This document shows, piece after piece, positions 18,732 to 40,108 of a stretch of DNA of 64,000 bases. The notes beneath the pieces are model-generated. The model was not told the origin of the DNA, searched no databases, and was given only the letters and a program-made list of their open reading frames with translations. Origin of the DNA: Candidatus Hydrothermarchaeales archaeon. GTDB lineage: Archaea; Hydrothermarchaeota; Hydrothermarchaeia; Hydrothermarchaeales; JAZGAD01. The stretch lies in contig JAZGAD010000047.1 of the NCBI GenBank assembly GCA_036444275.1, positions 6,125 to 70,124 of the forward strand, written 5' to 3'. The position numbers were made by a program, and so were the translations under genes. Within the stretch, counting starts at the first letter, position 1, and each line of letters starts with the position of its first letter.

Positions 18732-19879
18732 TGAGGTATGATCTCGATGAACTTATCGCCTCCTTAGTTGATGCGGAAACAGTCGAACTTGAGAATGTCA
18801 CTATAGATACTGAAGAACTGGTCCTTGAAATCAGGAGGCTCGCAGGAGCCCGAAGACCTCTACATCCACCTATTCTGAAGCCCGAGAGACTGAAATTCCA
18901 AGTTCCCAAGGGAGAGTACAGGGGAGAAGTAGTAGAAGTGCAGTTCGGGGCTACGAAGGGCGATGGCGGGACTAGAGGAAAGGCAATTAAGATAGGTGGA
19001 CAGCGAAGCCTCTACTCCTTTGAGGATGGCATGCCAAATAGACCAGTTATCGCATATGATGTCTTCGATATGCCTATGCCAAGCTTTGCTAAATCGCTGA
19101 GAGAGGAGTGGCAGGATGCCTGGGATACCCCAGCGGAATGGGCAAAGAAAGCTGTGAAGCTGGGTGCAGATATGATAACCCTCCACTTAATATCAACAGA
19201 TCCAGGGATCAAAGATACCTCTCCTAAGGAAGCTGCTAAAACCGTGGAGGACGTGCTGCAGGCCGTAGATGTTCCCTTGGTTATCGGGGGCTCAGGTAAT
19301 CCAGAGAAGGACCCTGTGCTCTTCGAGAAGGTAGCTGAAGCTGCTGAGGGGGAGCTATGCCTACTCGCCTCTGCAAACCTTGACTTGGATCATAAGAGGA
19401 TAGTGGATGCTGCCAATAAGTACCGACACAACGTCCTATCCTGGACTTCTATGAATATAACAGACCAGCAGATGCTCAATAAACTCCTCCTCGACGAAGG
19501 GCTTCCGCAGGAGCGCATGGTCCAAGATCCCACTACAGGAGCGCTCGGCTATGGTTTGGAGTACACGTATTCCATCATTGAAAGGCTTAAGCTCAGCGCA
19601 CTTAAGGGAGAGAAGATATTGCAGAGCCCTATCTCCTGCGGTGTGACAAATGCATGGGCCGCTAGAGAAGCCTGGATGAATGAGCCTAGCTGGGGTGCAC
19701 GGGAGTACCGCGGTCCCCTGTGGGAGATAGTAACTGCAGTCACTGTGCTATTGGCAGGAGCTGACATGATGATGATGCTTCACCCTGGAGCCGTGAAGGC
19801 TGTGAAGGATATAATAGGGGCTATATCTGGAGAATTGAAAACCGAGCCCCTAGCTTACGAGGAATGGATCGCTCTATAG
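18731..19879 (+). CDS. cdhD: ACDS complex delta subunit (corrinoid Fe-S protein small subunit, CdhD)
   Basis: TIM-barrel-like 382-aa protein between cdhC and cdhE, with start-stop overlap to cdhC. Confidence 0.8.
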   Translation: MRYDLDELIASLVDAETVELENVTIDTEELVLEIRRLAGARRPLHPPILKPERLKFQVPKGEYRGEVVEVQFGATKGDGGTRGKAIKIGGQRSLYSFEDGMPNRPVIAYDVFDMPMPSFAKSLREEWQDAWDTPAEWAKKAVKLGADMITLHLISTDPGIKDTSPKEAAKTVEDVLQAVDVPLVIGGSGNPEKDPVLFEKVAEAAEGELCLLASANLDLDHKRIVDAANKYRHNVLSWTSMNITDQQMLNKLLLDEGLPQERMVQDPTTGALGYGLEYTYSIIERLKLSALKGEKILQSPISCGVTNAWAAREAWMNEPSWGAREYRGPLWEIVTAVTVLLAGADMMMMLHPGAVKAVKDIIGAISGELKTEPLAYEEWIAL

Positions 19880-19886
19880 GGGGCCT

Positions 19887-21311
19887 GTGATGGTCAAGAT
19901 ATCACCACTGGAGATATACAAGCTCCTCCCAGGTACCAACTGCAAAGAGTGCGGCGAGGAGAGCTGCATGGCATTTGCCTCCAAGCTCATTGAGAGAGCG
20001 AAGGGAGTGGGAGATTGCCCACCTCTTGCAGAGGATAAATATTTAGAAAAGAGGGAGAAGCTGATAGAGCTCGTTACACCCCCGGTGAAGGAAGTAGTTG
20101 TAGGTGTTGGGGAAAGAGCAGTTGCTATCGGTGGGGAGGAAGTCATGTATCGCCATGAGCTCACCTTCTTCAACAAGACAGCCTTCTTCATAGATGTTCA
20201 CGATGAGATGAGCCAAGAGGAGTTGGCAAAGAAGGTTGAAGCCATAGACAAGTTCACCTTTGGAAGGGTCGGCCAAGAGTTGAAGCTCCAGGGGGTAGCG
20301 GTTAGGGCTAAGAGCGGGGAGCCCACGAAGTTCGGCGAGGCAGTGCTAGTAGTGACTGAGAAAACCGACCTCCCTCTAATGCTCTGCTCCTATGATCCAA
20401 AGCTGCTGGAAGTGGCTCTGGAGATAGCATTGGATAGAAGGCCTCTCATCTATGCGGCGACAAAGGATAACTGGGAGCAGGTTGTGAATCTAGCCCTGAA
20501 GCATGCCTGCCCGGTAGTTGTGTCGTCGCCAGGCGACATAGAGGGATTGATTGAGCTATCACAGAACTTGATGGAGAATGGAATAGAGGATATTGTCTTG
20601 GACATAGGCACTTATCCTGACGGTGGACAGCTTAAAGCCATGGAGGAGAATCTGGTCATGCTCAGGAGATCTGCTATAGAGGAAGAGGTAAAGCCCTTGG
20701 GATTCCCCATCTTGGGCGTGCCGATGGTAGCTGGTATGAGGGAGAAAGATCCAGTTAAGGCTGCTATGGCAGAGGTAACACTAGGTGCTTCGTTGATACT
20801 GAAATACTGCGATATCATGGTAGTTAGCTCCATGGAGGTCTGGTCCCTTTTACCACTTCTCACCATACGGCAGAATATCTACACGGATCCGAGGATGCCC
20901 CTCCAGGTGGAAGCAGGTCTCAAGATTCTAGGCAGCCCCGACGAGAATGCACCTGTCTTTCTCACCTCCAATTTCGCCTTGACCTATTACACTGTGGCAT
21001 CTGATCTGGAGGCAGCGAAGATACCATGCTATGTATTAGTAGCTGATACAGATGGACACGCAGTGGAGGTAAGCATGGCTGGTCAGAAGCTAACTGCAGA
21101 CGTGGTCAAAAACGTTCTAGAGTCTTCTAAGGTCGCGGAAAAAGTGAAGCATAAAAAGCTCATCATTCCTGGTAGAGCATCTAGGATAAGCGGAGAGATC
21201 GAAGACGCTACGGGCTGGGAGGTAATGGTGGGTCCCATAGACTCGGCCAGAATACCAAAGTTCCTGGATGAAAAGTGGAATGGCACGGCAGTCAGTAAAG
21301 GTCGTCAATAA
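19887..21311 (+). CDS. cdhE: ACDS complex gamma subunit (corrinoid Fe-S protein large subunit, CdhE)
   Basis: The N-terminal 4Fe-4S motif reads ISPLEIYKLLPGTNCKECGEESCMAFA...C, and the protein is 474 aa. Confidence 0.9.
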   Translation: MMVKISPLEIYKLLPGTNCKECGEESCMAFASKLIERAKGVGDCPPLAEDKYLEKREKLIELVTPPVKEVVVGVGERAVAIGGEEVMYRHELTFFNKTAFFIDVHDEMSQEELAKKVEAIDKFTFGRVGQELKLQGVAVRAKSGEPTKFGEAVLVVTEKTDLPLMLCSYDPKLLEVALEIALDRRPLIYAATKDNWEQVVNLALKHACPVVVSSPGDIEGLIELSQNLMENGIEDIVLDIGTYPDGGQLKAMEENLVMLRRSAIEEEVKPLGFPILGVPMVAGMREKDPVKAAMAEVTLGASLILKYCDIMVVSSMEVWSLLPLLTIRQNIYTDPRMPLQVEAGLKILGSPDENAPVFLTSNFALTYYTVASDLEAAKIPCYVLVADTDGHAVEVSMAGQKLTADVVKNVLESSKVAEKVKHKKLIIPGRASRISGEIEDATGWEVMVGPIDSARIPKFLDEKWNGTAVSKGRQ

Positions 21312-23083: not shown

Positions 23084-23779
23084 TTACCGCCTCTTACCCG
23101 TTAGTAGGACGTGGTCCTTATCATATGGTTCAAGATTCAGCGAAACAATCTTGAAGCCAGCTTCCTTAAGCCTCAATTCTTCTCTTCTAAAGATCGCCTC
23201 TGGTTCCTCGGTGACATCTATACTCCTCGCCTTTACAGCCATAGCGACATACCCCCCTGTCTTTAGATAGAGGCCAGCATTCTCCAGCAATATCTCACCC
23301 TGGTTTGGCTGGGCTATATCCTGATAGACGAGGTCGCACTTCTCCAAGAAAGAGAGATATCTTCTGGGTTGAGAGGCATCTGCGAGGATCGGTATCATAT
23401 TCTTTCTTGGCTCGCACACATACATGAGCTCCCTGAAGACCCTGGGAGAAAAGTCCACACAATATACCATACCATCAGCGGCGATGTCTGAGACATGAGA
23501 TGCAGTAGTGCCAGAGGCAGCACCCAGGTAGAGAATCCTTGAATCTCTTTTAATGGGAAGATTTTCTAGCCCGTTGTATATAGCAGCAGCAAGCTTGCTC
23601 CTCTTAGGGTTCCAGAGACGGTACTCCACGCCGTTCACAGGTACAAGCCTCTCCCCATAGACAGCTGTCCCCGGAACGAGGTTCTTGGTCGCTAACCTAT
23701 CTCCTATAACGGCTAGGTTATCTACAGCATTTACATCGAGCTTGAATATAGACTCATTACCCTTCGGGTGCCTCGCCAT
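23084..23779 (-). CDS. flpA: fibrillarin-like rRNA/tRNA 2'-O-methyltransferase
   Basis: It carries the characteristic fibrillarin motif YRLWNPKRSKLAAAI and the SAM motif ILYLGAASGTTASHVSDI. Confidence 0.95.
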   Translation of the reverse strand: MARHPKGNESIFKLDVNAVDNLAVIGDRLATKNLVPGTAVYGERLVPVNGVEYRLWNPKRSKLAAAIYNGLENLPIKRDSRILYLGAASGTTASHVSDIAADGMVYCVDFSPRVFRELMYVCEPRKNMIPILADASQPRRYLSFLEKCDLVYQDIAQPNQGEILLENAGLYLKTGGYVAMAVKARSIDVTEEPEAIFRREELRLKEAGFKIVSLNLEPYDKDHVLLTGKRR

Positions 23780-23916
23780 TAGCTCTCTTCCTTTTGCATC
23801 TCATCGTAAAAGGTGTCCCTGCAGTTCCTGCTGCAGAAGAACAACCCGTCTCCACATCCCTGATAGGCCTCGTCTTCCTCCACCTTCTCACTGCAGTAGC
23901 TACACGTCACCTTCAT
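23779..23916 (-). CDS. small (45 aa) TRASH/FCS-type zinc-ribbon protein wedged between nop5 and flpA
   Basis: Hand translation gives MKVTCSYCSEKVEEDEAYQGCGDGLFFCSRNCRDTFYDEMQKEES, matching C-x2-C-x19-FCS-x2-C. Its ATG overlaps the nop5 stop and its TAA overlaps the flpA ATG. It is below the 60-aa ORF-track cutoff. Confidence 0.45.
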   Translation of the reverse strand: MKVTCSYCSEKVEEDEAYQGCGDGLFFCSRNCRDTFYDEMQKEES

Positions 23917-25040
23917 TTTGACCACTTTCTGCCTTTCTTCCTCTTATTTTTTCTGCCTTGCGGTCTTTCTCTGCGTATTATTCTCATTCTTTTTGGCTCG
24001 GGCAGCTTCCTCACTTCGGCCACTCTTGCAGCGAGGGCGTCCTTCAGCTCATCAGCTATATACGCTTTTGAATAGGCGTCTGCCCTTGCCGCGATCGCAA
24101 TCTTACCAGCGAAGCTCCTGGCTATCCTTCCTCTCTGCCACCATGGCGCTGTTTTAATAAGCGGGTGCTGGAAGATGGCACCATGTTTCGGCGGAGTTCC
24201 CTTCTTCCGGAGGTGTCTGAATAAGGCCTTCTCTGCTCCGATCACCTGAATCCTGCTTCCAGGCATTCTGGCCAGTTTCTCTAGGCCGCCTGCTAGAGAG
24301 ATGAGTTTGGCGCCCACAAGGGCACCTGCTAAACTAGATAGATTCGGAGCAACCTCTTGCATCTTATAAGATATATAGCCATCTAGCTCCGATCTAAATT
24401 CATAGAGCGTGCATACTTGCTCCGCAAACTTTGAGAGTATATTGCTGTCCTTTTCACCTATCTCCGCGCCTGCTGATGTAGCAGCGAGCTCCCTGAATTC
24501 CGAGCTGGCCTTGAAGCGCTCTCTGGAGCCGAATTCCCTTAGCAATCTGGCGTACTTCTCGTGGTCCTCCACCTTGTCCAGCTCTGGGAAGTGTAGGGAA
24601 TACCACTCCCTAATCCGCTCTGAAAGGATATTCAAGCTTTCATCAACATCGGCTAGAGCCTCAGCAGCCTGTATAATGAGTCCGTCCTCTCTCCCGAAGG
24701 CCTCCTTCATCTCGCTCTTAGCAGTAGAGATGGATACCTCTCTAAGGATATTTTCGTATTCCTCCCTTGATACATCGAGCTCTTTGAGGATACCATCCAA
24801 TTTGCTCACCAAGAACTCCCCAGCTGGATTTGTAACGCGAGCATCCTCGAAGATGCATTCATATCCGCTCAGCTTCTCTATAATCCTCTTTCCCTCGAGC
24901 GTTGATGCACTGTAAGTCCTTAACTTCTCCGAGATCTCTTTTGTATCTCTAGGGAATGCCTCGTAGACAAGGAGCTCGCCCTCCTTGGTAAAGGCAAAAA
25001 GTCCAAGGACGTTGCCTGCCACATATGCTTTTTTCGACAT
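23913..25040 (-). CDS. Nop5/Nop56/58 box C/D snoRNP protein
   Basis: Nop domain and coiled coil, a C-terminal K/R-rich tail, and the canonical nop5-fibrillarin pairing. Confidence 0.9.
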   Translation of the reverse strand: MSKKAYVAGNVLGLFAFTKEGELLVYEAFPRDTKEISEKLRTYSASTLEGKRIIEKLSGYECIFEDARVTNPAGEFLVSKLDGILKELDVSREEYENILREVSISTAKSEMKEAFGREDGLIIQAAEALADVDESLNILSERIREWYSLHFPELDKVEDHEKYARLLREFGSRERFKASSEFRELAATSAGAEIGEKDSNILSKFAEQVCTLYEFRSELDGYISYKMQEVAPNLSSLAGALVGAKLISLAGGLEKLARMPGSRIQVIGAEKALFRHLRKKGTPPKHGAIFQHPLIKTAPWWQRGRIARSFAGKIAIAARADAYSKAYIADELKDALAARVAEVRKLPEPKRMRIIRRERPQGRKNKRKKGRKWSK

Positions 25041-26994: not shown

Positions 26995-28446
26995 ATGACA
27001 GAAGCTAGTCTCTTAATAGTAGATGATGCGGAGGGTATACGGGAAACCCTCTCGGATATATTCAAGGAGAAGGGTTACGGTACCGATGTAGCTGAGGATG
27101 GCCGGGCAGCTATAGAGAAGGTAAAGAAGAGCTTCTTTAACGTCGTGCTCCTGGATATAAGGCTACCTGATATCTTGGGTGTAGAGGTATTGGAGAGTTT
27201 GAAGGAGATACGGCCAGATATAGAAGTGATAATGATTACAGCATATGCCTCTCTTGAGACCTCTATTGAGGCACTGAATAAGGGAGCATATGCCTATATC
27301 ATGAAGCCCCTTAACATGGGGGTGGTGATAGCTACCGTTAAGAAAGCCCTGGAGAAACAGCGCCTATCCGCAGAGAACATGTGGTTAACGGAATTCAACG
27401 AACGCATTATAAAGAATGCACCGATTGGGATCTTAACCACCGATGAAAAGGGCGATATAACGAGTGCGAATCCAGCTATTCTTGAGATTCTGGATAGCTT
27501 GGAGACGGAAAAATTGATTGGGCTTAGCGTATTAACCCTCCCAACCAGTAGGGCAATGGGCTTAGATAAGGAACTCAAGAAAGTATTGTCTGAGGGAAAG
27601 GAGATAGAGCTAGCGGGGAAGTATGTTTCTGAATCTGGAGCAGATGTTTTTCTCCATATCAGAAGCACCCCATTGAGAAACGAAAAAAGAGACATAACAG
27701 GGCTCCTAGCGATAATCGAGGACGTAACTGAGAGAAAGAAGCTTGACAGCATGAAGGATGCGTTTATCTCCAATGTCTCGCATGAGTTGAGGACTCCCCT
27801 TACATCTATCCTCACTTCTCTGGAGCTTCTTTCAAAGGAAACTGTAGAGAAGGAGAAGCGTAAGCTCTTGGAAATCTGTGATAGGAATGCTTTGAGGCTA
27901 AATCGATTGGTGGACAATCTATTGGAAGTCAGCCGGATTGAAGTAGAGACATTAGATGTTCGGACACTCGACGTTACTCGGGTAGTGGCAGAGATAATAT
28001 CAGAGCTGCAGGATTTTGCCGTTGTGAGTAAAGTTACGCTAAAATCCCTTATCGAGGATGAGTTCCTCGTAAGGGCCGATAAAAAATCACTACGGCTTGT
28101 CTTCCTGAATCTGATCAGCAATGCCATCAAGTTTAATAAAGAAGGGGGTAAGGTAACGATATCCGGCGAGCGGGAGGATTCATTTACCAGGTTCTGCGTA
28201 GAGGATACAGGCATAGGCATTCCAAGAGGAGATTTGAAAGAAATATTCAAGAGTTTCTACCAAATCGATGCAAGCATAAGGCGCAGGTACCCTGGAGCTG
28301 GTGTTGGTCTAACTATAACGAAAAACATAGTAGACGCCCATGGAGGCAAGATATGGGCTGAGAGCAAGCCCGGTAAAGGAAGCAAGTTCTGTTTCACTCT
28401 ACCCTCTGGAAGTAGAACCGGGAAGAAGATAAAAGAGGTAGGATAA
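26995..28446 (+). CDS. hybrid response-regulator receiver / PAS / histidine kinase (cytoplasmic)
   Basis: REC (LIVDDAEGIRETL...VLLDIRLPD), PAS, HisKA H-box SHELRTPLTSI and HATPase_c (G-box GVGLTI). Paralog of 35642..37279. Confidence 0.85.
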   Translation: MTEASLLIVDDAEGIRETLSDIFKEKGYGTDVAEDGRAAIEKVKKSFFNVVLLDIRLPDILGVEVLESLKEIRPDIEVIMITAYASLETSIEALNKGAYAYIMKPLNMGVVIATVKKALEKQRLSAENMWLTEFNERIIKNAPIGILTTDEKGDITSANPAILEILDSLETEKLIGLSVLTLPTSRAMGLDKELKKVLSEGKEIELAGKYVSESGADVFLHIRSTPLRNEKRDITGLLAIIEDVTERKKLDSMKDAFISNVSHELRTPLTSILTSLELLSKETVEKEKRKLLEICDRNALRLNRLVDNLLEVSRIEVETLDVRTLDVTRVVAEIISELQDFAVVSKVTLKSLIEDEFLVRADKKSLRLVFLNLISNAIKFNKEGGKVTISGEREDSFTRFCVEDTGIGIPRGDLKEIFKSFYQIDASIRRRYPGAGVGLTITKNIVDAHGGKIWAESKPGKGSKFCFTLPSGSRTGKKIKEVG

Positions 28447-28582: not shown

Positions 28583-29257
28583 CTATACCTCTTTCCCCTC
28601 TGCCAATTCTTCCAGCTCCAACGGGTGCTCATGTTCCATTTGTTCTTTACTCAGTGTTCCAGTTATCCATTGCTTTGCCATTGGAAATATATCTGGATTC
28701 AAAATCGCCGCGTATAAATGTACGACTATTACAACAGAAAATGCCAAGATGGCCTCCCACCCATGTATCAACCAAGCATAATTGACGAACTGTAGCGGTA
28801 GGACTTCCAAGGTCATATCGAATGTGAACCACATCATAAGTCCTGTTACAACTACTATGAGAGAACCAACAGCTCCGGCCCAGTAATCGAACTTCTGCTC
28901 CCAGGTATACCTCCCCATTTTTGGCATTTCGTCGGTCATCCGTAAATTGTATTTGATGTGGTGTATAGCGTCATCGAAATCTTTCCTTTGCGGCATTATG
29001 TCCTTCTTTCCTCTGTCGATCATGGTGTAATATATCACATGTATAAGGCCTGTACCGATGAATACTACTGCAGCAATTTGATGATATAAACCTCTATTAG
29101 CCGGACCCCCAAGCAAGTCAACTATACTCTGTGCCCAGGATGTGTGGGCGTATTTCAATGGGAATCCCGTCAATGCCAAGATGAAAAACGATAAAGCCCA
29201 AAGGACGTGTTGTATCCTCTGAAAGACGGTAAATCTTAAGAATTCTTCTTCGGTCAT
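28583..29257 (-). CDS. membrane b-type cytochrome (cytochrome b561/Ni-hydrogenase-type dihaem cytochrome b family)
   Basis: Four TM helices with conserved His (QRIQHVLWALSF..., HQIAAVVFIGTGLIHVIYY). It overlaps the dihaem cytochrome c gene by 4 nt. Confidence 0.7.
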   Translation of the reverse strand: MTEEEFLRFTVFQRIQHVLWALSFFILALTGFPLKYAHTSWAQSIVDLLGGPANRGLYHQIAAVVFIGTGLIHVIYYTMIDRGKKDIMPQRKDFDDAIHHIKYNLRMTDEMPKMGRYTWEQKFDYWAGAVGSLIVVVTGLMMWFTFDMTLEVLPLQFVNYAWLIHGWEAILAFSVVIVVHLYAAILNPDIFPMAKQWITGTLSKEQMEHEHPLELEELAEGKEV

Positions 29258-29823
29258 TTCGCACGCCCCCCTTTCCTACTCTTACCTAACCTCCGACTAA
29301 AGTCCAATATCTCAAAGACTACGAAGAATCCTAGCACCGCGGAGATAAGTGTTTTATAGAAGAAGTTTATCAGCCCATTCACGGAGATTGGGCCTAGAGA
29401 GTATATATCGCTTCCATGCATCGATCCCTTGCCGGCATTGGCCAATTTAACATCATGACAATCTTCCCTCGCGCATATATCAGGTCTATTCTTAGGATTA
29501 GTGGGTGAATTTGGATCGCTCTGCGGAAGGAAATACATCCAGTCCACCATGCCGTGGCAATCCGTACAAGTTGGGACACCCTCTTTTCCGAGGGCAGCCG
29601 CTTTACCATGAGGGGACTCTTGGTACGTCTTGTTCGCATATTCAAAGGTATATGCAAGGTTATACCTCGTCTTAGCCTCAGAAGGTAGGGGGCTCTTCCA
29701 TCCCTCACTCCTGTATTTCTCCATGTCCCTCTTCTGGACTTCCTGAGCCTCCACGACATGGCTCAGGGATATGAAGCCTAAAAGGAAGAGTATTAGAACC
29801 CCGCCCTTTACCAACTCTCTCAT
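29254..29823 (-). CDS. membrane-anchored dihaem c-type cytochrome
   Basis: Signal peptide, one CXXCH (CTDCH) and one CX4CH (CAREDCH), and a C-terminal TM helix. Confidence 0.65.
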   Translation of the reverse strand: MRELVKGGVLILFLLGFISLSHVVEAQEVQKRDMEKYRSEGWKSPLPSEAKTRYNLAYTFEYANKTYQESPHGKAAALGKEGVPTCTDCHGMVDWMYFLPQSDPNSPTNPKNRPDICAREDCHDVKLANAGKGSMHGSDIYSLGPISVNGLINFFYKTLISAVLGFFVVFEILDFSRRLGKSRKGGRAK

Positions 29824-29850: not shown

Positions 29851-31350
29851 TTATTCATGCAGACGCGGAGGTTCGAGGTATTCTTGGAGTACCCAAGGCG
29901 AAACGTGGTTGTGGCATCCGTTGCATGAGTTGGGCTGCACATTCCAGAGCAGATCGTCCAGGGTTTTTCCTGCGGACATAGCTTCTCGGGCTTTTTTCTT
30001 GAGCAGCTCTTCCACTTGGGTCGTGTTAAGGCCTTCTACATCTTTAGCCTCGAGGCCGTAGAAACCCAGGACGGTGTTATCCTTCTTCGCGGCTTTGTCA
30101 ACTAGGAGTTTTATGCTGACCTCTGGTTTAATGACCTTGAACCTGTGGCTCCTAATATCTCCGGGGTTAATGTTCTTTGCAGTCGGGGGCATATGGCAGC
30201 CGACGCAGTTCCCGAAGTCGTGGATAGTATGGCTCAACCCAGCGAGGCCTGGAACCCTCCTCGGCTCACCGTGGCAGGCTTTGCACAGCGCAGTGCCTGC
30301 TAGCTTGGTCTCGAACCTGCCTTCACCTTTAGAGTGAACGGTGTGGCAGTCCCAACAGGTTATTCCTGCCTTCGCATGCTCACTTATCTGCCAATCTGGA
30401 TACTGTTGGTGGTGTGATTTGGAGTCTCCACTCGGCCAGAAGCGTTTTGGTGTATCTTTTTCGCGTGTAACAGGATCGTACAGGGGTATCAAGTTCATAC
30501 CGGGTTTGTAGCCAACGGGATATCCGTATTTCGCATCGAGGGTAGAATGACCTCGGGTGTGGCATGAGCCACAAACCATGACCCCTATATCTGTTTGTGG
30601 GATCTTTGCTGGGTTTACGATCGTATCCTTCTTGTAGGGGGTATCGGCCAATATGTGGTTGCTCCCCGGTCCGTGGCAAGCTTCACATCTGGCTCCGTTA
30701 TCTATCCAAGTTGAGGCATAGGTATCCGTGACTTCATCGTAGTTTATTTGAAAGCCTGTTGTATGGCAACCAGCGCATTTATACTGCCAGATCCTTCCCT
30801 TGCTGCTCCAATAATTTTTGGGATCATCATAATCATATTTCTCCAGCCCATGGTAGTCTTGCCACTTCTGTTCCCTAATATTCCATTGAACAGGGAGTAT
30901 ATGGAATTCTCCATTGTCGAACTTCGTGAGATATCTCTGCTTCCAGGCACTACCGATGGTATAGAGCACTTCGTAGATGTGCTCTTCTCCATCAGGACCG
31001 ATAGTAGTTATATAATATTTTCCGTCCTCTGTCGACATCGTGGTGTTCTTATCCTTAACGGTCAATTCGTTGTTCTTGACAAAATCGCCGAGGACGACGT
31101 TTTCGCCGATTTCCTGTATTTTATATGGATGCAGTGTCGTTTTCCAACCGGCGTAAGTTCTCTCGTGGCATTGCTTACATTGAACAGAACCGACGTAAGT
31201 AGCCCCCTCAGTGGTGGTTGGCTTTTCTTCTCCTATTCTAAATCGTTCTAAGAAGCTGAATCCAGGCGTTAAGGTTATAAATGCAATCGTTACTACTACA
31301 AACGCGGCTACAAGCAACCGCGAGATTCTTTTTCTCTCCTCTTGCTGCAT
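29851..31350 (-). CDS. octahaem c-type cytochrome (OTR/ONR/HAO-like class by size and haem spacing)
   Basis: Eight CXXCH motifs (CKQCH, CAGCH, CEACH, CGSCH, CWDCH, CKACH, CVGCH, CNGCH), an N-terminal signal/anchor, and 499 aa. Confidence 0.85.
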   Translation of the reverse strand: MQQEERKRISRLLVAAFVVVTIAFITLTPGFSFLERFRIGEEKPTTTEGATYVGSVQCKQCHERTYAGWKTTLHPYKIQEIGENVVLGDFVKNNELTVKDKNTTMSTEDGKYYITTIGPDGEEHIYEVLYTIGSAWKQRYLTKFDNGEFHILPVQWNIREQKWQDYHGLEKYDYDDPKNYWSSKGRIWQYKCAGCHTTGFQINYDEVTDTYASTWIDNGARCEACHGPGSNHILADTPYKKDTIVNPAKIPQTDIGVMVCGSCHTRGHSTLDAKYGYPVGYKPGMNLIPLYDPVTREKDTPKRFWPSGDSKSHHQQYPDWQISEHAKAGITCWDCHTVHSKGEGRFETKLAGTALCKACHGEPRRVPGLAGLSHTIHDFGNCVGCHMPPTAKNINPGDIRSHRFKVIKPEVSIKLLVDKAAKKDNTVLGFYGLEAKDVEGLNTTQVEELLKKKAREAMSAGKTLDDLLWNVQPNSCNGCHNHVSPWVLQEYLEPPRLHE

Positions 31351-32686: not shown

Positions 32687-35227
32687 ATGATTGTGAGGTC
32701 CAAAAGTCGATATGAAATACCGAAAATGGAGAAAATGGATTGGATGAACAAAGAACAACAAAAAGCGGCGCTCATTTTGGTAGTGGCATTTATTGGTAGT
32801 GCACTTACAGTAAACGGAACGCTTACAGCGGCGGAAGAAAAATATAGTACGATATTAAGCGCTGTGAGAACAAACGAAACGATAATCATAGATGGGCAGT
32901 TAAAGGAGTCTTCATGGAATGAGACAAAGACACTGATCATCCCAGTGGTGGATGGAAAGGTCGGGGATGTAGATGTGGAGATGAAGGCATTATACGATAC
33001 TGACTATATCTACATGTACATCGTATGGCCTGATCCGACCCAAAGCGATGCTTTATTCTGGGGATATAATGGCACTGCTTGGAACCCCCCAAATAAAAAT
33101 ACAGAGGATATTTTCACGATCTTCTGGAATATAAGGGACTCGGTTGAGGGATATGATATAGCTGGATGCGCCATTACTTGCCACGCAAATAGGATGCATA
33201 CCAATACCCCCGAAGAAAGACTCGATTACTGGAAATGGAAGGCAGAGAAAGGCAACCCCTCCGGCTATATGTGGGATGGATTCCTAGACGATATCGTGGT
33301 TATCGGGGAGAAGATATATCCCGGTTTTTCTAGGACCTTTATGATCGAGAAGGCATGGCATTCACACAAGCTAGATGAAACATCGGGTGACTATGTGGAG
33401 GAGAGAAAGAACGCGATTATCGATGAGAGAGGCAATTTCATTGGGCCGAGATATTATGAACCTGACGCAAGGGGCGAAGATGCGAAACACATCACGATGG
33501 AGGAGATCCTTAGGGACGAGGCCGTGGAATTTTTGAATTTAACAAAACTGAACGATGGAAGAGAGATCTCGATCGGCTTCAAAGTGCCTGTATACATCTC
33601 CGAAAAACCGACAGGAAGTGCTAGAGATATAAGCGCCAAAGGGGTTTATTATGACGGGAAGTGGCATCTGGAATTCAAGAGAAAATTGCAGACCGGGCAC
33701 GACGACGATGTCCTGTTCGATATCGCGAAGACCTATCGTTTCAGCATAGCTGTGAATGACGATTCTCACGGATCCGCCAACGAGGGTTATGGCCAAGGAC
33801 ACAGCATAAGCATGCTGGCGCGAACCCTAGAATTTGGCGGGATTGGTTCTGAAGAGATAACCCAACTGGCACTAATCCGCGATTATCTTCAGACCGCCAA
33901 GGCATATACCGGGCGCGGGGAATCGGGAATGGCGCTTTCAGAGGTCGATCATGCGTTGGCGATTTTCAATGCGATCAGGGGAGCAGTCGCCGACGAAGAC
34001 CCAGAACTCTACATGGACATTAGAAAGAGATTTGTAGAGGCCAAGAGGAATCCCTCGATCGATAACCTTGATGTCGTGCTTCAAGGCATCGAGGTTGCTA
34101 CATTAACTTTGCAGGGAAAGAGAGAGCCGCCAGAAGCGCCGTGGAATGTAAAGCTCCTAGTTCTCTGGGGGAGCGTACAACTTTACGTCTTTGTCTTTAT
34201 ATCGATATTTGTTCTCTATCCCCTCTACAAAACGATACAAACAACTAGAATACCGGAAATGCGCTATTTCGGCATCTTCCTATTTATAGTCATCCTCCCC
34301 CTATTTCTTGAAGGCGTTGGGAGGTTTGGGGTCCTTTTCAAGATCAGATTTTTGCAGAACTTCAGTTTCACAACAAATGAATACATAACCTTGCTCTGGG
34401 CGATAGGCATGTTCATAGCCTTGCTCATAGCCAAAGTTGGATTCACCGAAATAGATGAGACCATTCGCTCATTAAAATATTACAGCGCTGAAGTCGAAAC
34501 TAAGATGGAGGAGTTGAGAAAATCGCAAGAGCAACTGGTCAAGTCAGAGAGGATGGCTTCCATAGGGCAACTGGCAGCGAGTGTTGGCCACGAGTTGAGA
34601 AATCCTCTTGGAGTGATCAAGAACGTGAGCTACTATCTCAGCATGGCCCTAGCCGAGAAAGATGAAAAGGTGAAGAAGCACTTAAATATCCTAGAAAGGG
34701 AACTAGATACCTCCAACAAAATCATCACCGACTTATTGGACTTTTCACGGGGGGAGATAGAACCCACTTTTGGGGAAGCCAACATCAATGCGATCCTTAA
34801 GGATACATTGGCCAGGGCATCGGTACCTGACAATGTCAAAGTGGAAACTTATCTGGCCGATTTACCCTCAATGAGAGTAGATGGAGAGCAATTACAGCGG
34901 GTGTTCTTGAATATGATTTCAAACGCTGTTCATGCGATGCCCGATGGTGGTAAATTGATTATCAGAACCAAAAGTAAGGGCAACTCCGTAGAGATAGAGT
35001 TCGAGGACACCGGCAAAGGGATTTCGAAAGAGGATATAAAGAAGATCTTCGAACCGCTCTTTACCACTAAGGCAAAAGGGATTGGGTTGGGGTTAGCGAT
35101 CTGTAAACAAATCATCGATGGGCATGGGGGCACCATCGATGCGGTGAGCGCTGTAGACCAGGGGGCAACTTTTATCATCAAACTACCCGTGATGGAAGTA
35201 GAGGAAGATGAAGAAAAGGAAAACTAG
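32687..35227 (+). CDS. membrane sensor histidine kinase with an extracytoplasmic DOMON/EB_dh-like putative haem-binding domain
   Basis: Signal peptide, a DGxLxExxW-type DOMON/EB_dh start (IDGQLKESSWNE), the conserved GCAITCHANRMH (CX3CH), a helical linker, about 4 TM helices, HisKA (VGHELRNPL) and HATPase_c. The start may be MNKEQQ at 32744. Confidence 0.85.
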   Translation: MIVRSKSRYEIPKMEKMDWMNKEQQKAALILVVAFIGSALTVNGTLTAAEEKYSTILSAVRTNETIIIDGQLKESSWNETKTLIIPVVDGKVGDVDVEMKALYDTDYIYMYIVWPDPTQSDALFWGYNGTAWNPPNKNTEDIFTIFWNIRDSVEGYDIAGCAITCHANRMHTNTPEERLDYWKWKAEKGNPSGYMWDGFLDDIVVIGEKIYPGFSRTFMIEKAWHSHKLDETSGDYVEERKNAIIDERGNFIGPRYYEPDARGEDAKHITMEEILRDEAVEFLNLTKLNDGREISIGFKVPVYISEKPTGSARDISAKGVYYDGKWHLEFKRKLQTGHDDDVLFDIAKTYRFSIAVNDDSHGSANEGYGQGHSISMLARTLEFGGIGSEEITQLALIRDYLQTAKAYTGRGESGMALSEVDHALAIFNAIRGAVADEDPELYMDIRKRFVEAKRNPSIDNLDVVLQGIEVATLTLQGKREPPEAPWNVKLLVLWGSVQLYVFVFISIFVLYPLYKTIQTTRIPEMRYFGIFLFIVILPLFLEGVGRFGVLFKIRFLQNFSFTTNEYITLLWAIGMFIALLIAKVGFTEIDETIRSLKYYSAEVETKMEELRKSQEQLVKSERMASIGQLAASVGHELRNPLGVIKNVSYYLSMALAEKDEKVKKHLNILERELDTSNKIITDLLDFSRGEIEPTFGEANINAILKDTLARASVPDNVKVETYLADLPSMRVDGEQLQRVFLNMISNAVHAMPDGGKLIIRTKSKGNSVEIEFEDTGKGISKEDIKKIFEPLFTTKAKGIGLGLAICKQIIDGHGGTIDAVSAVDQGATFIIKLPVMEVEEDEEKEN

Positions 35228-35582
35228 CATTTTGGTAGTAGATGACGATATAGGCACGTGTGAAACCTTGGCCGATATTCTGACTGCGAAAGGATATAAT
35301 GTAACTACTGCAGAGAGCGGAATTGAAGCGGTTGAGAAACTCAAGGGGGAGCTCTTCAAAGTTATCCTCATGGATATAAAGATGATGGGAATAAACGGCA
35401 TAGAGACAATTAGGGAGATCAAGAAGATAGTATATCCTGAGGTGGCGATAATTATGATGACGGCCTACGTCGCCGAGGCCCTCGTAACAGAAGCTTTGAG
35501 GGAAGGGGCATATGCCGTTGTCTACAAACCTTTGGATATTGAGAGGATAATAAAGCTCATTGAAAGTGCAACAGTTAAGTAG
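35208..35582 (+). CDS. single-domain CheY-like response regulator
   Basis: Receiver with ILVVDDD...ILMDIKMMGINGIE...MMTAY. It overlaps the end of the upstream kinase. Confidence 0.85.
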   Translation: MKKRKTSILVVDDDIGTCETLADILTAKGYNVTTAESGIEAVEKLKGELFKVILMDIKMMGINGIETIREIKKIVYPEVAIIMMTAYVAEALVTEALREGAYAVVYKPLDIERIIKLIESATVK

Positions 35583-35641: not shown

Positions 35642-37279
35642 ATGTCCGAAGAAAGCAGCATCTTGATAATTGACGATGATAAAGGGATGCGCGAGACCCT
35701 TACAGACATACTCCAGGTGAAGGGCTACAAGACGGAGAGCGCAAAGGACGGAGAAGCGGCCTTGGATAAGCTGAAGGAGAAGTCCTTCAATGTAGCGCTC
35801 GTCGACATAAAGCTCCCGGATATTTCAGGCACAGAGGTATTGAAAAAACTCAAAGAGATTCAGCCGGATACGATAGTGATCATGATCACTGCTTTCGCTT
35901 CTCTCAATACTTCGATTAAGGCTTTGAAAGAGGGGGCATATGGCTATATCATGAAACCCTTGAATATGGATGAATTATTCGCTACCATCGGAGAAGGTCT
36001 CGAGAAACAGCGGTTGCAAAAAGAATTAAAAAAGTACTCTGAGCAACTGGAAGAGATGGTGAAAGCTAGGACTGAGGAATTACAGAATGCCTATGAAGAA
36101 CTCAAAGGCCTCGCCATCGAGAGAGCCCGTAATATCGAAGTAATACAAGAGCAATCGAGGGAACTCAAGGAAGCTAAGGACTTCTTGGATAACGTGATAG
36201 ACAGTAGCGCTGACGCGATAATCACTACTGGGTTGGACGGTACGATAACCTCTTTTAGCAGGGGTGCTGAGGAGCTCTATAAATACAAGGCTAAAGAGGT
36301 TATAGGCAAGCCGGCCCTCTCCCTTTACCCAAAGGAGCTTCGAGAAGAGAGGAGGGCTGGGTTGGATACGCTTCTTAAGGGCGAGACTATACGGAATATG
36401 AGAACCAGGATATACAATGCCGATGGAGAGCTTGTAGATATAAGTCTCTCTCTTTCCCGGCTCAGAGATATCTCCGGAAAGGCTATTGGTACTGTCGGAG
36501 TCTCAAAGGATATATCCAAGGAGATAGAGGGAGAAAAACGTCTGACGGAGGCATATGAGAGGCTTGTCGAATTGGATAAGATGAAGGACGAGTTCCTATC
36601 CAATATTTCACATGAGCTACGCACACCTATAACCTCGATTGTGACCTCCCTAGAGTTATTAGAGGAAGAAAGTCTACCGGGGGAGAGGGAGAAACTTCTG
36701 GAGGTATCTAAGAGGAATGTTTGGAGGCTGGATAATCTCGTCGGCAACCTACTGGAGTTCAGCCGCTTAGGAACGCAGAAGCTGCAAATGCAACCATTGA
36801 ACGCAAGTGTGCTGGTTCGTGAGCTTATAGCTGAAATGGAGAACTTTGCGGCAAGCAATGAAGTGGAGGTTAAGTCCTTTCTAAAGGAAGAAACCATGAT
36901 CATGGCTGATAAAAAGTTCGTAGGGCCTATATTCGGGAATCTCATTGGCAATGCCATAAAATTCAATAAGCGGGGGGGCAAGGTTAGGGTATCGGCGGAG
37001 GAAGAGAATTCGTGGATAAAGTTTTGCGTAGAAGATACCGGTGTAGGAATCCCCAAAGAAGGCTTGGACAAGGTATTCGATAGATTCTACCAGATCGATG
37101 CAAGCATCAGACGCAGGTACCCAGGCACAGGCTTAGGGCTGACCATAGCCAAGGAGATGGTGGAGCGCCAGGGAGGCATGATATGGGCTGAAAGCGAATT
37201 GGGAAAGGGTAGCAGGTTCTATTTCACTCTGCCCTCGGAACCTAGAACTAGAACCAGAAAAAAGATAAACGAGAAATGA
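35642..37279 (+). CDS. hybrid response-regulator receiver / coiled-coil / PAS / histidine kinase
   Basis: REC about 70% identical to the 26995 protein, PAS, SHELRTPITSI and HATPase_c. Confidence 0.85.
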   Translation: MSEESSILIIDDDKGMRETLTDILQVKGYKTESAKDGEAALDKLKEKSFNVALVDIKLPDISGTEVLKKLKEIQPDTIVIMITAFASLNTSIKALKEGAYGYIMKPLNMDELFATIGEGLEKQRLQKELKKYSEQLEEMVKARTEELQNAYEELKGLAIERARNIEVIQEQSRELKEAKDFLDNVIDSSADAIITTGLDGTITSFSRGAEELYKYKAKEVIGKPALSLYPKELREERRAGLDTLLKGETIRNMRTRIYNADGELVDISLSLSRLRDISGKAIGTVGVSKDISKEIEGEKRLTEAYERLVELDKMKDEFLSNISHELRTPITSIVTSLELLEEESLPGEREKLLEVSKRNVWRLDNLVGNLLEFSRLGTQKLQMQPLNASVLVRELIAEMENFAASNEVEVKSFLKEETMIMADKKFVGPIFGNLIGNAIKFNKRGGKVRVSAEEENSWIKFCVEDTGVGIPKEGLDKVFDRFYQIDASIRRRYPGTGLGLTIAKEMVERQGGMIWAESELGKGSRFYFTLPSEPRTRTRKKINEK

Positions 37280-37308: not shown

Positions 37309-39759
37309 ATGCAAAGGAGAGCGAGGGACTTTTATCAATTAAGCTTGTTTAGTAGGGCTAAACGTAAGGATACGGCTATTTACATACCTAAAATTATACT
37401 TATAGTGATAATACTCGCTAGTTTTGCAGTTGTAGCAGGAGAGGTAGTGGAAAGACAGAGCACCATTTTGACAGCTGAGAGGGTCACTGAGCCGGTCGAG
37501 GTAGATGGGCTAGCTACTGAGAGTGCTTGGGATAGCGCGAGGCCGCTGGTGGTCACGGTCCAAGATGGTAGTATAGGGAGGATAGACGTATACCTCAAGG
37601 CATTATACGATTCTGACTACATCTACATCTATGCCACGTGGCCTGATCCAACTGAGAGTGTTAGTAAGCGTATGTGGGGCTTCAATGGCATAAACTGGTC
37701 TTTTTCTGACGACGAAGACAGATTTTCGGTCTTCTGGAATATAGACGATTCCGTCAAGGGCTTCAATGTCGGTGGTTGTGCGATGCTCTGTCACGGTGAT
37801 AGGATGCATGCTAATGCAGAGGGTGAGAAGGCTGACTCTTGGCACTGGAAGAGCAGTAGAACCAATCCAGTTGGTTATGCAGACGACAAATACGTAGACT
37901 CCCACGTTGTGCCTTACGAGGGTGGAGAGAAAATGGTAGGTCGCCATGGAGACCAAGCAGTCAGCGGGGGTTACATGCGTAACATCAATGACGAGGGCAC
38001 TAAGCCACTCTACTATGAGCCCTTGCCTGAGGATGAGTTGGATGCCTTGTTCCTATTGGAGGAGGAAGTCGAGGATGGTGAGGCAGTATTGTTGGATGAG
38101 GCGGAGCTTAAGTCGGGTATAGTTGTACCTGGTTATATCCTTAGTAAGCCAAGTGGCAGCAGAGGCGACATCGATTCTAAAGGTGTATGGCAAAACGAGA
38201 GGTGGGCTGTGGAGTTTCGTAGGAAGCTTGTGACTGGGCACGATGATGATGTCCAGTTTGATACTAGTAGGACGTATCGTTTTGGTATAGCTGTGATGGA
38301 CAATACGGGTGGCTTTGAGGGCTTCGGAAAGGGTCATAGCTTTGACTTGGGTGCCAGGACGCTTGAGTTCGGCGGCATTGGGAGCGAAGAGGTGACTCAG
38401 TTGGTCTTGATACGGGACTACCTAGTTACTGCCAAAGCACATGTTAGAGATGGAAAACCAGGATTGGCACTTTCAGAAGCCAACGATGGTCTCACATTGT
38501 ACAACGAGATCCGCGACGAGGTTGCAGACGTGGATCCAGAGCTCTACATAACTATAAAAAATGCATTCGTGGATTCTGTGAGGAATCCCACACTAAGCAA
38601 TATAGACATCCTGATAAGAAACATCGACGATGTTGTGCTAACTTTCCAGGGAAAGAGGCAACCAGCTGAACCGACGTGGAATCTAAAGCTCCTCATCGCA
38701 TGGGGGCGGATACAGCTCTATGTGTTCGTCGTGCTCTCAATACTTGTAACATACCCCATCTATAAGACAGTAAAGACGAGCGCGAGACCAGAATTACGCC
38801 ATCTGAGTCTCTTCTTGCTGATAGTAATGGCTCCGATATTCCTCGAGGGAGTGGGCCGCTTTGGTGTTCTTGCTAAGATTCATTTTCTGCAGAAGTTCAG
38901 TTTCACGACAAATGAATATATAACAATGATATGGGCGATAGGCATGTTCATAGCTTTGTATGTCGCTAAGATAGGATTCAACGAAGTAGATGATACCATC
39001 AAGTCGCTGGGTTACTACAGCACTGAACTCGAGACCAAGATGGAGGAGCTGAGGAAATCACAGGCAAAACTTTTAGGAGCAGAGAAATTGGCTTCTATAG
39101 GGCAGCTGACTGCAAGCATCGGGCATGAGCTGCGTAATCCGTTGGGCGTGATTAAGAACATAAGCTACTATCTCGACATGAAATTAGGCGATAGGGATGA
39201 AAAAATTAAGAAACATCTGCGGCTCTTGGATGAGGAGCTTGTCAGGTCAAATGAGATAATAAGCGATCTTTTGGACTTCTCTAGGGGTATAGAGCCGACT
39301 CTTCACGATGTTGACATCAATCCAGTCGTGGGGGAAGCCCTATTGAGAGCCACGATACCAGGTAACATCGAAGTGAGCACAAATTTTGAGGATGCATCAC
39401 CTAAGGTCTCCGTGGATAGCGAGCATATAGTGAGGGTATTTATGAATATAATCTCGAATGCAGTTCAGGCGATGCCAGAAGGTGGGAGTTTAAGGATAAG
39501 AACAGTGAAAAAGGATGATTTCATAGGAATAGAGATCACGGACACAGGCGTTGGAATCCCGAAAGAAGATGTAGGGAAAGTCTTTGAACCTTTATTTAGT
39601 ACGAAGGCGAAGGGGATAGGCCTGGGCCTAGCCATTAGTAGGCAGATCATAGAGAGACATGGCGGTAGCATTGAAGTAGAGAGCGTCCTAGATAGTGGGA
39701 CTACATTTATTGTAAAACTCCCGATAAAAAGGAGTCAGGGCGATGAAGGGGAAGACTAG
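37309..39759 (+). CDS. membrane sensor histidine kinase, paralog of 32687..35227, with the same DOMON/EB_dh-like domain and CX3CH motif
   Basis: VDGLATESAWDS..., GGCAMLCHGDRMH, the same TM/linker/HisKA/HATPase arrangement, and a colinear alignment by eye. Confidence 0.85.
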   Translation: MQRRARDFYQLSLFSRAKRKDTAIYIPKIILIVIILASFAVVAGEVVERQSTILTAERVTEPVEVDGLATESAWDSARPLVVTVQDGSIGRIDVYLKALYDSDYIYIYATWPDPTESVSKRMWGFNGINWSFSDDEDRFSVFWNIDDSVKGFNVGGCAMLCHGDRMHANAEGEKADSWHWKSSRTNPVGYADDKYVDSHVVPYEGGEKMVGRHGDQAVSGGYMRNINDEGTKPLYYEPLPEDELDALFLLEEEVEDGEAVLLDEAELKSGIVVPGYILSKPSGSRGDIDSKGVWQNERWAVEFRRKLVTGHDDDVQFDTSRTYRFGIAVMDNTGGFEGFGKGHSFDLGARTLEFGGIGSEEVTQLVLIRDYLVTAKAHVRDGKPGLALSEANDGLTLYNEIRDEVADVDPELYITIKNAFVDSVRNPTLSNIDILIRNIDDVVLTFQGKRQPAEPTWNLKLLIAWGRIQLYVFVVLSILVTYPIYKTVKTSARPELRHLSLFLLIVMAPIFLEGVGRFGVLAKIHFLQKFSFTTNEYITMIWAIGMFIALYVAKIGFNEVDDTIKSLGYYSTELETKMEELRKSQAKLLGAEKLASIGQLTASIGHELRNPLGVIKNISYYLDMKLGDRDEKIKKHLRLLDEELVRSNEIISDLLDFSRGIEPTLHDVDINPVVGEALLRATIPGNIEVSTNFEDASPKVSVDSEHIVRVFMNIISNAVQAMPEGGSLRIRTVKKDDFIGIEITDTGVGIPKEDVGKVFEPLFSTKAKGIGLGLAISRQIIERHGGSIEVESVLDSGTTFIVKLPIKRSQGDEGED

Positions 39760-40108
39760 AGTATTGGTAGTGGACGACGACGCTGGAACCTGCGAAACCT
39801 TATCAGACATCCTCTTGGAAACTACCTGTCAAGTTACTATGGCACGCGATGGATTTGAGGCCATAGAGAAGATGAAGGGGGAAAGCTTCGATGTTGTTCT
39901 TATGGATATAAAGATGCCAGGCATAAACGGGGTGGAGACTTACAAAGAGATGAAGAAGATAAATCCAGAGGCGAAAGTGGTTATGATGACAGCCTACGTT
40001 GGGGACGATCTAGTGGCAGAGGCCCTGAAGGAGGGGGCATCTACTGTGCTCTATAAGCCTTTGGATATAGGTAAGATGATAGACATCATAAAGGGAAAAT
40101 CCACATAA
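39743..40108 (+). CDS. single-domain CheY-like response regulator (paralog of 35208..35582)
   Basis: Receiver with VLVVDDDAGTCETL...VLMDIKMPGINGVE...MMTAY. Confidence 0.85.
   Translation: MKGKTRVLVVDDDAGTCETLSDILLETTCQVTMARDGFEAIEKMKGESFDVVLMDIKMPGINGVETYKEMKKINPEAKVVMMTAYVGDDLVAEALKEGASTVLYKPLDIGKMIDIIKGKST

Follow-up and report, generated by a model that had tools for sequence, protein, structure and literature searches.

A CX3CH motif in the EB_dh domains of two paralogous histidine kinases from a Hydrothermarchaeales archaeon: a predicted extracytoplasmic haem-c sensor

Architecture of the two kinases and their CX3CH motif

A 64-kb stretch of contig JAZGAD010000047.1 from a Candidatus Hydrothermarchaeales archaeon (assembly GCA_036444275.1), referred to below as the window, encodes on its forward strand a signalling cluster that open reading frame (ORF) calling and Pfam searches resolve into five genes, among them two paralogous sensor histidine kinases, HK1 and HK2 (Table 1). 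Both carry a CX3CH motif within a domain of the EB_dh family, and the two proteins are probably membrane kinases in which this domain serves as an extracytoplasmic c-type haem sensor for a redox or gas signal. HK1 runs from an N-terminal membrane anchor through the EB_dh domain, a four-helix bundle and three transmembrane (TM) helices to HisKA and HATPase_c. With both transmitter domains matched, the H-box SVGHELRNPL present and response regulator genes adjacent, it is a two-component sensor histidine kinase.

The motif reads C-x3-C-H exactly in both kinases. Translation of the ORFs gave GCAITCHANRMH for HK1 (amino acids (aa) 160-171, nucleotides (nt) 33164-33199) and the 13-mer GGCAMLCHGDRMH for HK2 (aa 155-167, nt 37771-37809), which confirms the motif named in a preliminary description of this DNA and corrects coordinates that were 4-9 nt off. 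The same description called the two segments almost identical, which was generous: the motif is present in both, but only 8/12 positions match, and RKLQTGHDDDV, the stretch beginning TLEFGGIGSEE and the TM block are better conserved. Its figure of about 50% identity around the motif agrees with the 54% measured between the kinases overall and the 45% measured between their EB_dh domains. There are three cysteines in HK1 (161, 165 and 806) and two in HK2 (157 and 161), and the motif pair supplies the only ones outside the kinase core. Because composition predicts only about 1.8e-4 CX3CH per protein, cysteine is this scarce and the two cysteines and the histidine are kept in homologues, chance can be ruled out as the origin of the motif.

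Pfam placed EB_dh (PF09459) at aa 82-362 of HK1 and aa 76-333 of HK2, with 94.7 and 111.6 bits, respectively, against a gathering cut-off of 33.3, and the sensor domains of the kinases have the EB_dh beta-sandwich fold of EbdC and NxrC. DOMON (PF03351) stayed below its gathering score (16.5 versus 32.7 bits, E 0.0098, in HK1 only), and the relation of the sensor domain to DOMON is at the superfamily level only. No PAS or Cache domain was matched by Pfam in the sensor region, NCBIfam offered no model for a CX3CH-bearing EB_dh subfamily and returned only sub-threshold matches to a haem-b gamma-subunit model, and none of the significant PDB matches, as solved structures of the EB_dh fold, contains haem c. 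Hydropathy analysis revealed one N-terminal anchor ahead of the EB_dh domain and three TM segments behind it. With hydrophobic segments on either side, the EB_dh domain is predicted to lie outside the membrane and the kinase inside the cell, so that Pfam and hydropathy both support the extracytoplasmic EB_dh location proposed for the motif in the two kinases. Haem-c attachment occurs on the outer side of the cytoplasmic membrane.

The best conserved part of the two kinases lies at aa 506-612 of HK1 (34202-34522), where the TM helices and the linker after them are 70% identical, which is unusually high for helices merely relaying a signal; the motifs LEGVGRFGV and FSFTTNEYIT are kept in this stretch. 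Two similar cytoplasmic receiver-PAS-HisKA-HATPase proteins, at 26995-28446 (+) and 35642-37279 (+), flank or interrupt the sensor kinase genes. Since two such proteins are present and both cognate response regulators are single-domain proteins, the cluster suggests a multi-step phosphorelay, not direct transcriptional control.

Table 1. Genes, domains and residues of the kinase locus, numbered by position in the window
Feature	Position	Strand	Basis
Membrane cytochrome b of the Ni_hydr_CYTB family, at the end of the cytochrome cluster	28583..29257	-	Pfam
Small membrane-anchored protein with CTDCH and CAREDCH (CX4CH), without Pfam match, between the octahaem and cytochrome b genes	29254..29823	-	
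Octahaem cytochrome c with N-terminal anchor and eight CXXCH, encoded upstream of HK1	29851..31350	-	Pfam, motif count
HK1 sensor histidine kinase, 846 aa	32687..35227	+	ORF translation; Pfam EB_dh 1.1e-26, HisKA 1.1e-11, HATPase_c 2.1e-26
HK1 N-terminal hydrophobic anchor or signal sequence, aa 28-46	32768..32824	+	Kyte-Doolittle scan; topology predicted from it
HK1 EB_dh-fold domain, aa 52-385	32840..33841	+	
HK1 C161-A-I-T-C165-H166, predicted haem-c attachment (two thioether Cys and proximal His)	33167..33184	+	
HK1 His372 codon, in GQGHS, predicted distal axial haem ligand	33800..33802	+	
HK1 membrane-proximal helical domain, four-helix-bundle type, aa 386-490	33842..34156	+	
HK1 three-TM-helix block, aa 491-585	34157..34441	+	Hydropathy scan
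HK1 transmitter: HisKA aa 627-690, HATPase_c aa 732-835	34565..35191	+	Pfam
Single-domain response regulator, start overlapping the HK1 stop by 20 nt	35208..35582	+	Pfam Response_reg 6e-26
Cytoplasmic hybrid protein: receiver, PAS, HisKA, HATPase_c	35642..37279	+	Pfam
HK2 paralogous sensor kinase, 816 aa, architecture as HK1	37309..39759	+	Pfam EB_dh 8e-32
HK2 C157-A-M-L-C161-H162, predicted haem-c attachment site	37777..37794	+	
HK2 His343 codon, in GKGHS, counterpart of HK1 His372	38335..38337	+	
Second single-domain response regulator, start overlapping the HK2 stop	39743..40108	+	Pfam Response_reg 5.6e-28

Conservation and genomic contexts of the CX3CH domain

A search with the sensor yielded 39 relatives, those with a named source coming from metagenome-assembled genomes (MAGs) of Hydrothermarchaeales, Thermoplasmata, Desulfobacula and Magnetococcales. 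An EB_dh profile scored against 1.84 billion 50%-identity representatives gave 2995 matches at E <=0.001, with 692 at E <=1e-30. G-C-x3-C-H is kept in 25/25 sensor-type homologues and is also found in six shorter or two-domain EB_dh proteins that are not sensors (P0027 and P0029-P0033); the whole motif segment is absent from six more distant proteins among the relatives found by the sensor search. Within the 145 best new representatives of the 2995 matches, 139 contain C-x3-C-H, always as G-C-x3-C-H, and each EB_dh repeat has one such motif in proteins with up to five repeats.

Position counts were taken from 242 domain copies of the 50%-identity representatives, aligned by hidden Markov model, with the copies covering the segment as denominators. 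Cysteine occupies the Cys161 column in 197/200 copies and the Cys165 column in 199/199, and histidine the His166 column in 199/200. Alignment of homologues thus bears out the invariance of both cysteines and the histidine (about 99% of about 200 copies) but not that of the trailing R-M-H, which the preliminary description had considered together with them. In the sensor clade the Arg is mostly kept, the Met changes to His, Lys or Phe (Phe in P0021) and the last His to Arg, Tyr, Phe or Ser, while the Met170 column of the wider family comprises 103 Met, 28 Lys and 11 His of 209. Only the first cysteine is lost in two representatives, P0116 and P0162 (GGLILCH, GPAVTCH), where CH is retained, and these would be single-thioether variants; single-Cys cytochromes c with the same loss of the first Cys and with CH kept are known. 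Judged from the alignments, CX3CH is the hallmark of a large uncharacterised EB_dh subfamily and not peculiar to HK1 and HK2. Tandem EB_dh repeats with two to four CX3CH each were seen in the large proteins P0040, P0042, P0043 and P0047 (1303 aa with four motifs in the last), which may be extended electron-transfer or surface proteins.

Thirteen representatives share the unit of EB_dh domain, helical bundle and TM block, which is used as a modular input domain: its outputs differ, comprising HisKA/HATPase_c, HisKA_3/HATPase_c, GGDEF, DUF835, versions with PAS or GAF and a hybrid kinase-receiver, and it is found in archaeal MAGs and, as the GGDEF version, in Desulfuromonas. Several Hydrothermarchaeales and 'Methanobacteriota archaeon' MAGs encode close relatives, the only ones that the genome scan with its narrower alignment detects, often with two or three paralogs per genome. 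One MAG, JBHIFP01, matched at 92% identity. Several relatives of about 620-665 aa (P0002-P0008, P0013 and P0014) consist of the sensor and TM block with no recognisable kinase or output domain. HK1-like and HK2-like copies stand side by side in L006:2011-6077, where the paralog pair is conserved even without kinases.

Two further contexts are suggestive as to the signal. The HisKA_3 kinase P0060 (L024:514-7563), with the same CX3CH EB_dh sensor, lies directly after multihaem cytochrome and MtrB/PioB porin genes, an MtrA/MtrB-like set, and is followed by the gene for a response regulator whose DNA-binding domain is of the GerE (LuxR) type; this arrangement suggests regulation of an extracellular electron-transfer conduit. 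The Desulfuromonas GGDEF fusion P0058 (L022:1193-11892) is flanked by genes for a katG-type catalase-peroxidase, rubrerythrin and desulfoferrodoxin, with a receiver-PAS-GGDEF-EAL protein encoded downstream, and its context hints at an oxidant or redox signal. Both contexts fit extracytoplasmic redox or oxidant sensing without proving it.

Stand-alone relatives occur in an electron-transfer context. The family of the stand-alone protein P0032 (Desulfobacula) has 783 matches at E <=1e-10, all named 'hypothetical' or 'ethylbenzene dehydrogenase-related'. A four-gene operon of the order Rieske / EB_dh / EB_dh / cytochrome b was found in three genomes, at L002:6433-10105 (a Desulfobacula MAG), L020:3489-7099 (a Syntrophobacteraceae MAG) and L021:3353-7077. 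Each EB_dh protein of these operons has a single CX3CH, and of the two paralogs one has a C-terminal His (DDHSK) and the other ENSY at that place. An arrangement between Rieske and cytochrome b genes is as expected for a c-type subunit of such a complex, and from its gene content the operon looks like that of an undescribed complex with EB_dh-fold c-type subunits. In other representatives, one of them from a Chloroflexota MAG, EB_dh is fused to 6-8 CXXCH motifs. No genes for the alpha subunit carrying the molybdenum bis-pyranopterin guanine dinucleotide cofactor (Mo-bisPGD) or for the Fe-S beta subunit were present within 28-42 kb of the window or adjoining the homologues examined.

As for the window itself, the organism probably matures c-type cytochromes, because an octahaem CXXCH protein is encoded there, and multihaem cytochromes with CXXCH or CXXXCH motifs are encoded by Hydrothermarchaeota MAGs (PMC6759336). 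The CX4CH of the small protein at 29254-29823 (-) represents a second non-canonical haem-attachment spacing at the HK1 locus. The window also contains genes for carbon monoxide dehydrogenase (CODH)/acetyl-CoA synthase (ACS), namely cdhC and two of the cdhD family, at 17364-21311 (+), and fibrillarin and Nop genes at 23084-25040; together these indicate an archaeal host with the Wood-Ljungdahl pathway.

Haem ligation and competing explanations

The haem b of EbdC and NxrC is held by a Met and a Lys (PMC8840923), which in NxrC are Met155 and Lys305 (PMC8387239). A profile-to-PDB search aligned fragments only, and equivalent ligand positions were therefore extrapolated by a few residues. In this alignment the WxW strand of EbdC and NxrC corresponds to D180-W182-W184 of HK1; the distance before the first Trp of WxW is 10 residues for the extrapolated Met ligand of EbdC and NxrC, 12 for HK1 Met170 and 16 for HK1 His166. 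CX3CH follows the FTIFWN strand and precedes the DxWxWKA strand, in the very loop from which, by extrapolation, EbdC and NxrC provide their Met ligand to the haem b. Extrapolation of the Lys ligand leads to a point at most about 4 profile positions from HK1 His372, a residue 13 positions ahead of the domain end. EbdC Lys201 also stands 13 residues from the end of the 214-residue EbdC chain. The His372 column contains His in 159/187 copies, and the other copies listed have mostly a His shifted by one or two positions, with three Lys; in the sensor clade His372 is invariant. A non-covalent haem b with Met/Lys ligation is thus not what the sequence of this EB_dh domain predicts, as the Lys position corresponds to His372 and the Met loop holds CX3CH.

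On this comparison His166 is the predicted proximal ligand and His372 most likely the distal one, giving a predicted bis-His haem. The preliminary description had instead looked to the trailing Met/His for the distal ligand. This did not hold up: both residues are variable in the sensor clade, a residue only four past the proximal His is poorly placed to ligate the far side of the haem, and R-M-H was rejected as the main model for its variability and its i+4/i+5 geometry. If His166 is proximal, Met170 would on geometric grounds be barred from the opposite face because only three residues lie between them; it might act as an alternative ligand or lie in the second sphere.

The mechanism that we propose would begin with one haem bound by the EB_dh domain in the pocket used by EbdC and NxrC and fixed covalently via Cys161 and Cys165, with His166 proximal. 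His372 would most likely replace the Lys ligand, yielding a low-spin bis-His haem c. Electron carriers in the extracellular or pseudo-periplasmic space, or oxidants, could trigger the signal by oxidising or reducing the haem, or a gas could do so by displacing one of its ligands; the change at the haem would alter the motif loop and the last strand of the EB_dh domain. From there the highly conserved EFGGIGSEE junction would relay the signal into the helical bundle, the three TM helices and the HisKA/HATPase core, which would phosphorylate the adjacent single-domain response regulators and probably feed the receiver-PAS-kinase encoded between HK1 and HK2. Of this picture, the motif and its conservation, the fold, the use as a modular input and the electron-transfer setting of stand-alone relatives are observed; that the haem is covalently attached, which residue is its sixth ligand, what the signal is and how it travels are predictions.

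A covalent haem-c sensor, as put forward in the preliminary description, is the best reading by motif conservation and loop position, the attachment itself being predicted. Several points weigh against it. Haem type and ligation are deduced from sequence only, Pfam found no Ccm genes among 40 of the larger ORFs of the window, His372 adjoins a loop modelled with low confidence (predicted local distance difference test score, pLDDT, <50 for model residues 316-325), and a Met170 column rich in Met, Lys and His leaves room for a Met ligand or a ligand switch. In addition, five archaeal-type relative contexts are without cytochrome or redox genes. The preliminary description had regarded the kinases as sensors for the neighbouring cytochrome system, and cytochrome genes do adjoin HK1 at this locus, alone among the archaeal ones examined; sensors dedicated to a neighbouring cytochrome operon were, however, rejected as a general rule, since the context is not kept in the archaeal relatives examined.

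The same covalent haem-c sensor might report CO, NO or O2 displacing a weak distal ligand such as Met170 and not a redox state, which we consider unlikely though worth keeping in mind. The composition of the Met170 column, in the sensor clade mostly Met with His or Lys as replacements, speaks for a displaceable ligand, and a gaseous signal would suit the CODH/ACS genes in the window, the oxidative-stress genes adjoining the Desulfuromonas GGDEF relative and the carboxydotrophy proposed for the lineage (PMC6775978); haem-c Cache sensors fused to signalling modules act as NO sensors (PMC12889525). Yet invariance of His372 in the sensor clade predicts a six-coordinate bis-His haem, which is a poor gas binder, and P0021 has Phe in place of Met170. 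It is improbable that the domain holds a non-covalent haem b as in EbdC and NxrC, ligated by Met170 and His372, with the cysteines forming a disulfide or another metal site. Such an arrangement would match every solved member of the fold, all of which carry haem b, and Met170 lies <=2 residues from the extrapolated Met ligand position, but the His that directly follows the second Cys varies no more than the cysteines do (199/200), and a disulfide would not need it. Variants that have lost Cys1 and keep C-H are likewise hard to reconcile with a disulfide, about half of the domains with the motif have no Met170, fusions or operons link relatives to c-type cytochromes and Rieske/cytochrome b, and structural disulfides are unusual in anaerobic hosts such as these. 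That the domain is a CBM9-type carbohydrate-binding or otherwise cofactor-free ligand module, through which the kinases would sense a sugar or other small molecule, is very hard to believe when its invariant residues are of haem type (C, C, H, H) and both haem-ligand positions of the haem-b relatives hold ligand-capable residues.

Relation to known haem proteins and biological meaning

The closest known proteins are the gamma subunits of type II dimethyl sulfoxide (DMSO)-reductase-family enzymes, EbdC (PDB 2IVF chain C) and NxrC (7B04 chain C), which have the same EB_dh fold, bind haem b non-covalently with Met/Lys and are subunits of Mo-bisPGD enzymes (PMC8387239, PMC8840923). HK1 and HK2 differ from them in having CX3CH, a His in place of the Lys, no molybdoenzyme partner genes nearby and a kinase fusion. 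SerC, ClrC and DdhC are gamma subunits of this kind as well. CbsA (cytochrome b558/566) of the Sulfolobus SoxLN-CbsAB system is an EB_dh-type monohaem b protein that acts on the outer side of the membrane together with a Rieske protein and cytochrome b. The Rieske/EB_dh/EB_dh/cytochrome b operons share the logic of SoxLN-CbsAB, a comparison made by arrangement; CbsA is a b-type cytochrome and not a sensor, unlike the HK1/HK2 domain. More distant fold kin are the cytochrome domain of cellobiose dehydrogenase and DOMON domains (Foldseek 1D7C and 1D7B, E about 0.05-0.1, too weak for membership), which hold haem b non-covalently. The cellobiose dehydrogenase cytochrome domain employs Met/His ligation.

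With regard to function, the nearest parallels have another fold. In Geobacter, the PAS-like domains of the chemoreceptors GSU0582 and GSU0935 are likewise extracytoplasmic sensors with one covalent haem c and a signalling fusion (PMC3460858), and sCache_haem (DUF3365/Tll0287) also combines an extracytoplasmic covalent haem c with signalling outputs (PMC12889525). For sCache_haem the same 2026 preprint proposes stand-alone forms as redox proteins and fused forms as sensors (PMC12889525), and this split between stand-alone and fused forms is also seen in CX3CH EB_dh proteins. The Geobacter proteins and sCache_haem use CXXCH on a PAS/Cache fold, whereas HK1 and HK2 have CX3CH on an EB_dh beta-sandwich; the scaffold of HK1 and HK2 was already a haem-binding fold and not a cofactor-free one.

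A literature search found nothing specific on EB_dh or DOMON domains that carry a c-type haem, nor on such domains as sensors. The novelty ascribed to a c-type site in these domains therefore holds for characterised proteins, but archaeal candidates had already appeared: Kletzin et al. modelled some archaeal monohaem cytochrome c candidates on ethylbenzene dehydrogenase (EBDH) in 2015 (PMC4429474). In the Borg paper there is mention of an EBDH-like protein that is extracellular and has a haem-binding domain.

Taken together, the CX3CH branch of a family so far known only for loosely bound haem suggests a kind of redox or gas sensor not described before. A bolder proposal, which we hold only tentatively and regard as doubtful in its full extent, is that this haem-c sensor class exchanges electrons directly with multihaem cytochromes or extracellular acceptors and reports the redox poise of the outward chain to two-component and cyclic di-GMP signalling, that it is shared by Hydrothermarchaeota and Desulfuromonadia-type bacteria, and that it was recruited from undescribed c-type 'EB_dh cytochromes' serving, among other roles, as the cytochrome c1/f equivalent in a new Rieske/cytochrome b complex. 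The characterised members of the EB_dh family are haem-b subunits of molybdoenzymes; most close relatives of the HK sensors are predicted c-type cytochromes, and some CX3CH EB_dh relatives are likely subunits of an undescribed Rieske/cytochrome b complex, which makes the annotation 'ethylbenzene dehydrogenase-related' misleading for them. Few covalent-haem sensors working outside the cell are known, all of them on PAS-like or Cache scaffolds, to which an EB_dh version would add a third. Such a sensor would give a handle on the sensing of external redox conditions and oxidants in strictly anaerobic, cytochrome-rich archaea and in metal-reducing bacteria.

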